Shown: in pieces, positions 9,110-21,489 of the stretch
Layout: each line of letters begins with the position of its first letter
Position numbering within the stretch: position 1 is the stretch's first letter
DNA from: an uncultured delta proteobacterium
GTDB taxonomy: Bacteria > Desulfobacterota > Desulfuromonadia > Desulfuromonadales > BM103
Direction: 5' to 3'
Assembly: GCA_963715335.1 (NCBI GenBank)
Contig: CAVQRZ010000015.1
Span: 1 to 31,616, forward strand
DNA length: 31,616 nt
Notes under the pieces: generated by a model
Database searches by the model: none
What the model saw: only the letters and a program-made list of their open reading frames with translations
What the model was told of the DNA's origin: nothing
Made by a program: the position numbers and the translations under genes

Positions 9110-9216
9110 AGATTGGTACTGATTATTAGGACGGTAGGGGGTGCCCAAAATTCATTCTTCGCTCACGTCCATTCAGGAAATTATTTCGACGGAGTCTTCT
9201 ATGGTAGGTGAGCGCA

Positions 9217-9285
9217 CAGGGTGCGGAGCGAACGCTACTACTTTGGGCGCAGGGGGGACTGGTTGAAATCCAATCATCCCGACCA
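9217..9285 (+). pseudogene. Degenerate tRNA-Pro(TGG)
   Basis: cagggtg...ctttgggcgcaggggggactggttgaaatccaatcatcccgacca resembles tRNA-Pro (TTTGGG anticodon loop, GGTT.AAATCC T-arm, CCCGACCA end). The D-arm is disrupted and TTC is mutated. Confidence 0.65.
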
Positions 9286-9567
9286 TCTTTAAATGAGAGC
9301 GACTTTCCCGGGGTCACACTTTTTTTCTTCCGGGCCATGTCTGGTCCGAAGTCTTCTCTATCGGACAAACTGAATGTTCTAAAAATGACGTCTTTTGTGC
9401 TCTGGTCTTGGGGTTTGTTTCCGGGTTATCTCTGGGGTGTTTTGGAAATGTCACTGAATACTTGTTTTCAACAAATCTTACCGTACAATGAAATTGAGAT
9501 TCTTTAATCTTGGTCAAACAGTAAGGACCACCTACGGATTCTTACTGAAATCCGAGAGGAGAAAAGT

Positions 9568-10098
9568 ATGCCAGACTTGTCCACAAATGATGATGCTTGG
9601 AGCCCTTATCTCGCAGGGGGATTATCGGGAATCGTGTCCATTCTATCGGTCTGGATTGCGGGTCATTTCCTGGGCGCCTCGACCACTTTTGTTCGTACTG
9701 TTGGCTTACTTGAAGAATTCATCTCTCCCGAGCGAGTCGCACAAATGGAGTATTTCATAAAAACCACCCCGAAGATCGATTGGCAGTGGATGTTCGTAGT
9801 CGGCATCTTCATTGGGGCTTTCATTGCCGCTCTGAGTTCTAAGAGCTTCAAATGGCAAGGCTTACCCGATCTATGGCAAAAGCGGTTCGGATCTGAGAGC
9901 CAAGGCAAACGAGCTGTCTTCGCTTTTACCGGAGGTGCTATAGCGATGTACGGAGCCAGACTGGCTGATGGCTGACCGAGCGGTCACGGGCTGAGCGGTT
10001 CGCTCCAGCTAGCTATCAGTGGTTTTGTTTCATTGGCATGCTTCTTCATTGGCGGTGTGTTTGTCGCTCGCCTCATCTACGGAAGGAGCCAGCCATGA
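9568..10098 (+). CDS. YeeE/YedE-family sulfur/selenium transporter subunit, predicted selenoprotein (UGA at 9973-9975 = Sec), 176 aa
   Basis: WSPYLAGGL and DWQWMFVVGIFIGAFIAA; GARLADG-[TGA]-PSGHGLSGSLQLAISG matches the family motif GARLAxGC(T/P)SGHG. The frame continues to TGA 10096-10098, which overlaps the next ATG. Confidence 0.88.
9990..10009 (+). promoter_or_regulatory. Putative bacterial SECIS hairpin
   Basis: gctgagcg-gtt-cgctccagc: stem with one bulge and a small G-first loop about 23 nt downstream of the UGA. Confidence 0.6.
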
Positions 10099-10622
10099 AA
10101 ATGCTCATCTATGGTCTTATAACCGGCATAGCTTTTGGCTTCCTGCTTCAAAAGGGCCGTGTCCTACGCTATGACAAGCAACTTGGAGCGCTATTGTTCA
10201 AAGATATGACCATCATTAAATTCATGCTTTCAAGTGTTTTAGTGGGAATGGTTGGAGTCTATCTTTTGGTTGACCTAGAACTAGCTAAACTAAGTATCAA
10301 AACAACTGTATTGGGGGGAAACATAATTGGTGGGCTGATCTTCGGTGTCGGATGGGGCTTACTTGGATACTGTCCAGGCACCTCAGCCGGAGCCCTTGCA
10401 GAAGGTCGTTGGGATGCTCTCTGGGGTATCATCGGAATGCTGGTGGGAGCGGCAGTGTACGCAGAGGCGTTCCCACTCATGAAAAAAACTGTTCTTACCT
10501 GGGGTGTTTTTGGCAAGATTACCCTACCGGAAATACTTGGAATAAACCATTGGGTGATTATAGTCATTGTTGTTATTGCAGGCTTACTCCTATTCAGCTT
10601 TTTTGAGAAGAAGAACCTTTAA
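10095..10622 (+). CDS. YeeE/YedE-family membrane protein, second subunit
   Basis: GIAFGFLLQKG, FKDMTIIKFM, GGLIFGVGWGLLGYCPGT; RBS aaggag and ATGA coupling give a start at 10095. Confidence 0.9.
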   Translation: MKMLIYGLITGIAFGFLLQKGRVLRYDKQLGALLFKDMTIIKFMLSSVLVGMVGVYLLVDLELAKLSIKTTVLGGNIIGGLIFGVGWGLLGYCPGTSAGALAEGRWDALWGIIGMLVGAAVYAEAFPLMKKTVLTWGVFGKITLPEILGINHWVIIVIVVIAGLLLFSFFEKKNL

Positions 10623-10850
10623 GGCCGTAAAAAAAAGCCCCACAATCATGAGGGAGAGGGGAAGAGAAAAAACTTTGGGAACGAAGGGCGGTTCCGGGGC
10701 TTCTCGGGGTGTTTCCAAGGTGGCCAAGATTAGGCCGCTCTTATTTATCTTGACTGCACAAATGCAAAAATATATGGTCCGCAGTGCTTAGTGTTATCTT
10801 CTGAGCCATCGACTCACGGATATTCGACACCAACACATAAGGAAACTGAT

Positions 10851-11588
10851 ATGCTCAACACTCGATTCTACAGAATTTTTCTCATGACTTTTTTTCTCAC
10901 ATTATCAACAACAGCCTTAGCCGGCGTTTACAAGGTAATTGGGCATGCAGAGCTAAAGCAATTAGTTGATTCCGACTCCCACACCTTCCTGCTGGTAGAT
11001 GCAAGAAACCCAGAGGAATACAGAGAATCCCATATTCCGGGTGCAATCAATATCCCTGAAAATAAATTTCAAAACTCTATTGGTCTGTTACCTTCAGACA
11101 AAAACATGAATTTGATTTTCTACTGTAACGGCATCAAATGTGGCAAAAGTAAAAAGGCCGCAGATCGAGCGGAGAAGCTGGGCTATACCAACATTCTAAT
11201 TTTTGCAGAGGGAATGCCCGTCTGGGAAGAACTCGGGTACTCATTTTACAAAAGTGGAGACTACGAAAAACGAATAGAGACGACCAAGATAGCCCCGGGC
11301 GCATTAAAAGAACTTGCTGACTCGCAACCTGACACCCTCCAAATTGTCGATGTCAGAGATGCCGAGGAGTTTGCTGAAGGGCATATACCAGGAGCGATAA
11401 ATTGTCCGTTATCAACCTTTGCCGCGTCTTCAGAAATTCTGGACAAGAATAAAAAAGTCGTTGTCTACTGCAACTCTGGAGGGCGGAGCTACAGTGCGTA
11501 CAGAAAGTTGATGAAGCTTGGATACCAGAACATTGCTCAATCCCTTTTTGCAGATTGGAAGGATTCAGGGTTACCGGTAGAGCTGTAA
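10851..11588 (+). CDS. Exported tandem rhodanese (sulfurtransferase) domain protein
   Basis: Signal peptide ending TALA; two domains with DAR/DVR..E..HIPGAIN and active-site loops FYCNGIKC and VYCNSGGRS. Confidence 0.9.
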   Translation: MLNTRFYRIFLMTFFLTLSTTALAGVYKVIGHAELKQLVDSDSHTFLLVDARNPEEYRESHIPGAINIPENKFQNSIGLLPSDKNMNLIFYCNGIKCGKSKKAADRAEKLGYTNILIFAEGMPVWEELGYSFYKSGDYEKRIETTKIAPGALKELADSQPDTLQIVDVRDAEEFAEGHIPGAINCPLSTFAASSEILDKNKKVVVYCNSGGRSYSAYRKLMKLGYQNIAQSLFADWKDSGLPVEL

Positions 11589-20760: not shown

Positions 20761-21489
20761 AAATACGGGTTTAGAGAGGGGCTCGTTGTCGGAACTTTTC
20801 TCTGCCAATCAGGCTGCGGGCATAAACACCACGACTTACAGCATATAGAATGAATAAAGATTGCGTGGAGACGTGGCCGCACCCAAAAGTGCCTGATCAA
20901 TCCCGCCGCAGGATTTTCCCGGCTGGATTGGAATGGGAAAGTGGTTGACCTGCGCACTCGTTCCCTATGAATACTGGTCGGTATAATTAAATCCGAACCA
21001 GCGCCCCTTGCATCCGCAGCAGAAGCGTTCGCATCGCATTCTGTGCGTCCAGACCGCGGAACCTCCCGACATCAGCCTTTGAAGACGTGCAGCAAAGAAC
21101 GTTTGTCTAGCGTACCTGTGTAAATCCTTGAAATTTGCCTATAGCGCACCAATTCCCGAAGAAGGCCCACTGTCTAACGGCTGTACATTACAATTCCCTT
21201 GATTTCACCTGGCTTTCAGGTGTTTACATAGTCTTGATCTGTCGACTAACGGACTGACCCGGCGGTAGAAGCAAGAGGGCCAGAGGGGATAACCTTGAGT
21301 GGTTTTTAACTGTGGCTTTGAATCTTCCAAGCCTTCTGCCGTGAACAAATTAAGTGGGTATTTGGTAGAATACATACGATGAAGATTGGATCTACTTGTT
21401 CGAAATGGCCGTCTCAATCGCACCAATAAAAGAGAAAAGCTTTTCGTTGCCTTATGCCATAGCGGAAGCAACCCTTCCGGAAGGTCTCC

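Follow-up and report, generated by a model that had tools for sequence, protein, structure and literature searches.

The in-frame UGA at codon 136 of a YeeE/YedE half-transporter gene from an uncultured delta proteobacterium is very probably read as selenocysteine (Sec). On the overall evidence it is probable that this reading proceeds via a downstream hairpin and that the gene and its immediate neighbour encode a predicted two-gene YeeE-type channel, likely importing sulfane sulfur or thiosulfate. The window referred to throughout is the whole stretch of 31,616 nucleotides that was analysed (GenBank assembly GCA_963715335.1, contig CAVQRZ010000015.1). The selenoprotein call made in an earlier sequence-only reading of this DNA is confirmed as correct and well supported, and the family itself is not new.

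Results

The Sec half-gene (9568..10098, + strand) starts at ATG 9568, with GAGGAG at 9556-9561 upstream, and encodes 176 aa including the likely Sec136. Translation under table 11 yields 135 aa ending in GARLADG; when TGA is taken as U (9973-9975, + strand; codon 136 of 176), the frame continues as UPSGHGLSGSLQLAISGFVSLACFFIGGVFVARLIYGRSQP, and its terminal TGA at 10096-10098 overlaps the ATG of the next gene at 10095 to form ATGA. The stop at GARLADG, the read-through frame and the ATGA overlap described in the sequence-only reading were all exact on re-reading. The protein matches Pfam PF04143 with E 2e-23 and 83.8 bits (cut-off 27) over profile positions 175-309, and it aligns to residues 230-331 of the S. 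thermophila YeeE (StYeeE), i.e. the C-terminal half of TsuA. In this alignment Sec136, which stands in the motif G-U-P-S-G-H, falls on Cys293 of StYeeE, and the position of the thiol is PmpA-like. The earlier placement of Sec at a conserved pathway cysteine is supported by this correspondence and by the swaps of TGA and Cys among homologues.

Downstream of the UGA lies a predicted bacterial SECIS (9989-10010, + strand) composed of a 5-bp stem, one bulge, a 4-bp stem and a GUU loop at 9998-10000, which begins 22 nt after the UGA, close to the distance of about 23 nt given in the sequence-only reading. Its 26-nt core folds at -11.4 kcal/mol. The relevant passages of PMC13188914 describe bacterial SECIS elements by a loop of 3-9 nt, a G in the first two loop positions, a distance of 16-37 nt from the UGA and an MFE <= -7.5; the source hairpin, with its 3-nt GUU loop, its 22 nt and its -11.4 kcal/mol, falls within all of these limits, which were applied by our own script and not by bSECISearch. 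Folding of the source sequence alone did not go beyond chance when compared with shuffles (z -1.13 to +0.83 in four folding windows), and the significance of the hairpin is therefore drawn from comparison with homologues and not from single-sequence folding.

A GTDB genome search gave 146 relatives, spanning Desulfuromonadales, Desulfobacterales, Syntrophales, Nitrospirota and Negativicutes, and the best 80 loci of the 146 were analysed. The sequence-only reading had held that a lack of TGA at this position in homologues would speak against Sec; the codon at the site was TGA in 71 of these best 80 loci, TGC in 8 and TGT in 1, and TAA or TAG was found in none of the 80. An order-wide search returned 106 matches in 201 genomes, and its best 30 loci, which overlap with the best 80 GTDB loci, comprised 23 TGA and 7 Cys forms. 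The frame remains open for 38-43 codons past the TGA in all 71 TGA loci, and the crude pN/pS is 0.19 upstream as well as 0.19 downstream of it, so that a chance stop is ruled out. At least four switches between Sec and Cys were counted by well-supported branches among 96 rows; the trees were quick trees only, the second of them built from 36 hand-picked rows.

Hairpins within the above limits occurred in 70 of the 71 TGA loci and in 2 of the 9 Cys loci (best 80 of 146 relatives), as well as in 50 of 1000 sequences in which the window's peptide was recoded synonymously. Synonymous codon identity among 22 distinct TGA sequences reached 0.84 at codons +5 to +12, which hold the hairpin, in comparison with 0.61 at +1 to +4 and 0.42-0.52 in the flanks, while over the hairpin codons it was only 0.45 in 7 Cys sequences. 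Across 62 distinct TGA sequences 96.6% of the cells were paired, and two-sided compensatory change was seen in 23 cells at 2 of the 9 pairs (G-C to A-U in 8, C-G to U-A in 15), a level of covariation reached by 0 of 500 shuffles, though only two pairs are involved and kinship among the sequences inflates the counts. In the tree, both Cys loci with such a hairpin, L061 and L120, have TGA loci as their sisters, the placement to be expected of recent reversions.

Variants of the hairpin were also observed. Seven loci (L137, L144, L149, L117, L106, L107 and L122) have SECIS variants with a six-base loop, in which the encoded residues shift from SL to LA or SA and the hairpin is retained. Two loci (L142 in G479 and L143 in G442) constitute a second Sec clade with the motif GUTSGH. 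This clade stands away from the GUPSGH one and groups with Cys forms that carry GCTSGH; it has a weakly folding hairpin (-5.1) and may have gained Sec independently.

The Sec machinery, whose presence the sequence-only reading had named as a check, was found in full in the source genome: selA (two matches), selB, a selD that carries a single in-frame TGA, and a tRNA-Sec whose anticodon is TCA, selB and the TGA-bearing selD being on contig C6. The selA matches (G000 C6:149907 and C40:6842) and the yedF matches (G000 C6:127346-127927 and C13:476-667) are both double, which may reflect the 6.9% contamination of the genome. Among 22 TGA genomes tested, selB was found in 21 (one partial), and the one with no selB match, at 80% completeness, contains selA and a TGA-bearing selD. 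Three genomes (G028, G219 and G344) are without selA, selB and tRNA-Sec, and all of them have TGC at the site. G028, which is 100% complete, carries a TGA-free selD and still shows a SECIS-like hairpin; it sits among TGA relatives, and two congeneric genomes retain selA, selB and the TGA. In a phylum scan of 301 genomes, four had the family with no selA match: G219, G344, G469 (selB present, family match without a stop) and G295 (98% complete, TGA at the site, selB and tRNA-Sec present). Many Cys forms occur in selB-positive genomes, and Sec is thus optional and not required for function.

The transporter is split into two genes, a feature absent from the sequence-only reading. The partner half-transporter (10095..10622, + strand; 175 aa) matches PF04143 with E 3e-14 and represents the N-terminal half of TsuA, aligning with StYeeE residues 2-179 at E 4e-8. 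Its Cys93 corresponds to StYeeE Cys91 and is invariant in 37 of 37 aligned sequences; the equivalent of Cys22 is absent from the partner, with Leu24 at that position of the StYeeE alignment. Within the best 80 of the 146 relatives, the partner gene lies downstream in all 80 loci (one cut by a contig end), with the ATGA overlap in 64. Selenium gating of the partner via translational coupling was considered, and it is weakened because the partner has its own ribosome-binding site, AAGGAG at 10083-10088.

Downstream of the pair is a double-domain rhodanese (10791..11588, + strand; PF00581 twice), possibly a sulfur acceptor or donor for the pair, for which tblastn at E 1e-4 gave no match in any of the best 80 of 146 loci. 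A conserved operon around the pair was rejected, the rhodanese neighbour being unique to the window and the other neighbours variable. A CoA-disulfide-reductase-like gene (under the NCBIfam cut-off) follows the pair in 13 of the best 80 of 146 loci, all belonging to one branch of the gene tree, and had no match at E 1e-30 in the source genome; no TusA/YeeD gene was found adjoining the pair. The neighbourhood offers no common clue to the substrate. In one Desulfobacteria MAG a sulfur oxygenase reductase gene (L119:5457-6713) is located directly upstream of a TGA-type pair. Rfam and ARAGORN gave no match in the region.

The AlphaFold2 model of the Sec half as a monomer was too poor for a judgement of the fold (pTM 0.38; residues 135-142 with pLDDT <50), and a wide fold search from it gave a best Z of 5.1, with YeeE absent among the 50 matches listed. 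Sequencing runs contained at most 0.30 of the query words, and parts of the two genes are covered by contigs from relatives' RNA libraries, a kind of contig that cannot show transcription.

Discussion

In StYeeE, Cys293 contacts thiosulfate in a periplasmic indentation, the C91A and C293A variants are inactive while C22A is active, and the structure paper models transport with hydrogen bonds (PMC7449682). Import of zero-valent sulfur by the split YedE1E2 depends on both of its Cys, one of which is predicted to face the cytoplasm (PMC10812762), and because of that prediction the membrane side of Sec136 is taken here solely from the StYeeE alignment. PmpA/PmpB of Serratia shares the two-gene layout, with thiols matching Cys293 and Cys91 (PMC11582611). 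The pair described here resembles PmpA/PmpB and YedE1E2 (Cupriavidus, Sinorhizobium) in having two adjacent half-genes with one conserved thiol each, whereas their halves are of ~130 aa and carry Cys, and those of the present, longer subfamily are of 176 and 175 aa with Sec replacing Cys; moreover, unlike them, this subfamily belongs mostly to anaerobic Thermodesulfobacteriota, Nitrospirota and Negativicutes. TsuA/YeeE (E. coli, S. thermophila 6LEO) is homologous to the pair in both halves and the Cys91 and Cys293 sites are retained, but it is a single chain of 330-350 aa that contains three Cys and has YeeD (TsuB) next to it, in contrast to two chains, no Cys22 and no adjacent YeeD in our case.

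We consider it probable that SelB-dependent insertion of Sec at codon 136, via the conserved hairpin, gives a Sec half that joins its partner in a predicted heterodimeric YeeE-type channel, in which a periplasm-side Sec136 would receive sulfane sulfur or thiosulfate and hand it over to Cys93 of the partner, from where it would reach a thiol or sulfurtransferase in the cytoplasm. The relay role of Sec is an inference. Since the Sec and Cys forms swap repeatedly among close relatives, they probably serve one and the same function, Sec being the more reactive nucleophile of the two. A selenol where the substrate makes contact is a hint that YeeE transport may involve covalent chemistry, and a bolder version, which we put forward tentatively and consider doubtful, is a catalytic transporter in which an outer-gate Sec would attack periplasmic polysulfide and form a covalent selenopersulfide, the sulfane sulfur then passing to Cys93 and on to cytoplasmic thiols. 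If true, it would constitute a selenium-dependent, selenium-gated route of sulfur import in anaerobic sulfur-cycling bacteria. The natural Sec/Cys pairs of close kin (G001 and G043 against G028) would make the choice between a hydrogen-bond and a covalent relay directly testable.

The main rival to sulfur import is that Sec is inserted but the pair moves selenium species, in uptake or export, with YedF in place of sulfur acceptors. It could draw on the observations that the pair is the sole PF04143 match in the source genome, that YedF is the sole TusA-domain protein there and its gene adjoins tRNA-Sec, and that two Cys-form genomes without selA and selB retain selD; full-length YedE has also been proposed as a selenium transporter, split in archaea, in the relevant passages of PMC5322559. 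However, the selenium YedE/FdhT models TIGR04112 and NF033796 score 31-33 bits, far under cut-offs of 200-350, with 33 bits against 350 and 32 against 200, these being whole-protein cut-offs that penalise half-length proteins. The NCBIfam TsuA models NF041049 and NF052577 score 35-55 bits, likewise far under their cut-offs of 400-645. No sel gene was seen among the neighbour families (one representative per adjacent-gene cluster), and the family is present in 69 of the 301 phylum genomes (E 1e-45) as against 282 with selA. We regard selenium transport as unlikely, and sulfur import by the pair as the preferred reading.

Two further explanations carry still less weight. That Sec is inserted and the two proteins work separately, form homodimers, or serve export or redox sensing instead of sulfur import, is improbable: SoxT-type YeeE proteins do take part in signal transduction as well (PMC11582611), but the halves here are complementary and the partner's constant place behind the Sec half across the best 80 loci opposes it. 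That the UGA is a true stop, through nonsense mutation or assembly error, leaving a 135-aa protein or a pseudogene, is barely credible. Public gene calls do end at 133-135 aa and the hairpin is unremarkable against shuffles, yet TGA recurs at the site in several phyla without ever giving way to TAA or TAG, the downstream codons are under purifying selection, the hairpin tracks the TGA, and the short product would contain neither the essential Cys site nor the final helix.

The sequence-only reading had cautioned that Sec-containing members might already have been predicted, and this caution was well placed. The Sec-containing YeeE/YedE family (PF04143, WP_012471001.1) is tabulated in PMC9312934 and PMC13188914, the latter giving the motif GUxSG and naming the family among predicted Sec transporters, and the supplement of Peng 2016 lists Sec YeeE/YedE in 5 organisms. 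The present protein agrees with the catalogued family in Pfam family, in motif (GUPSG within GUxSG) and in having one Sec. YeeE appears neither in the text nor in the four supplements of Zhang and Gladyshev 2008, the source to which the catalogue entry refers, and no experimental study of Sec-YeeE was found in the literature searched, subscription papers being outside the search. As family and motif are already in print, the discovery is modest; the analysis adds the split layout of the genes, the mapping to Cys293 and the SECIS covariation, all three absent from the catalogue passages, together with the natural reversion controls. With 71 TGA loci among the best 80 of 146, compared with the 5 organisms of the 2016 supplement, the family is far commoner than was counted.

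A widespread annotation error is also corrected. As the sequence-only reading had expected, such proteins are misannotated as truncated, public records stopping at the TGA with 133-135 aa. Eight of 120 protein matches end at the site; in the set of 121 proteins these 8 stand beside 111 with Cys, a number that includes the source protein itself (P0001, written with C for U), and 2 outside the search pattern. GenBank and UniRef entries, SHJ60846.1 and SHJ82880.1 among them, end at the TGA, and two entries that end there are from Malonomonas rubra. This organism has two TGA-type copies (L056 and L060) on different contigs, deposited as truncated hypothetical proteins.

Apart from the transporter, a degenerate tRNA-like family was observed in the window at 9205-9331 (+ strand) and 20928-21069 (- strand), with copies elsewhere at G000 C23:3317-3461, C30:25741-25877, C30:29403-29529 and C28:24918-25001. 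The stretches, the 3' half of which we take to resemble tRNA-Pro, are followed by a hairpin and a T run. The family comprises six nhmmer matches, four of them the seeds, and ARAGORN calls three of the stretches, only at lowered thresholds; they are possibly attachment-site remnants of islands.
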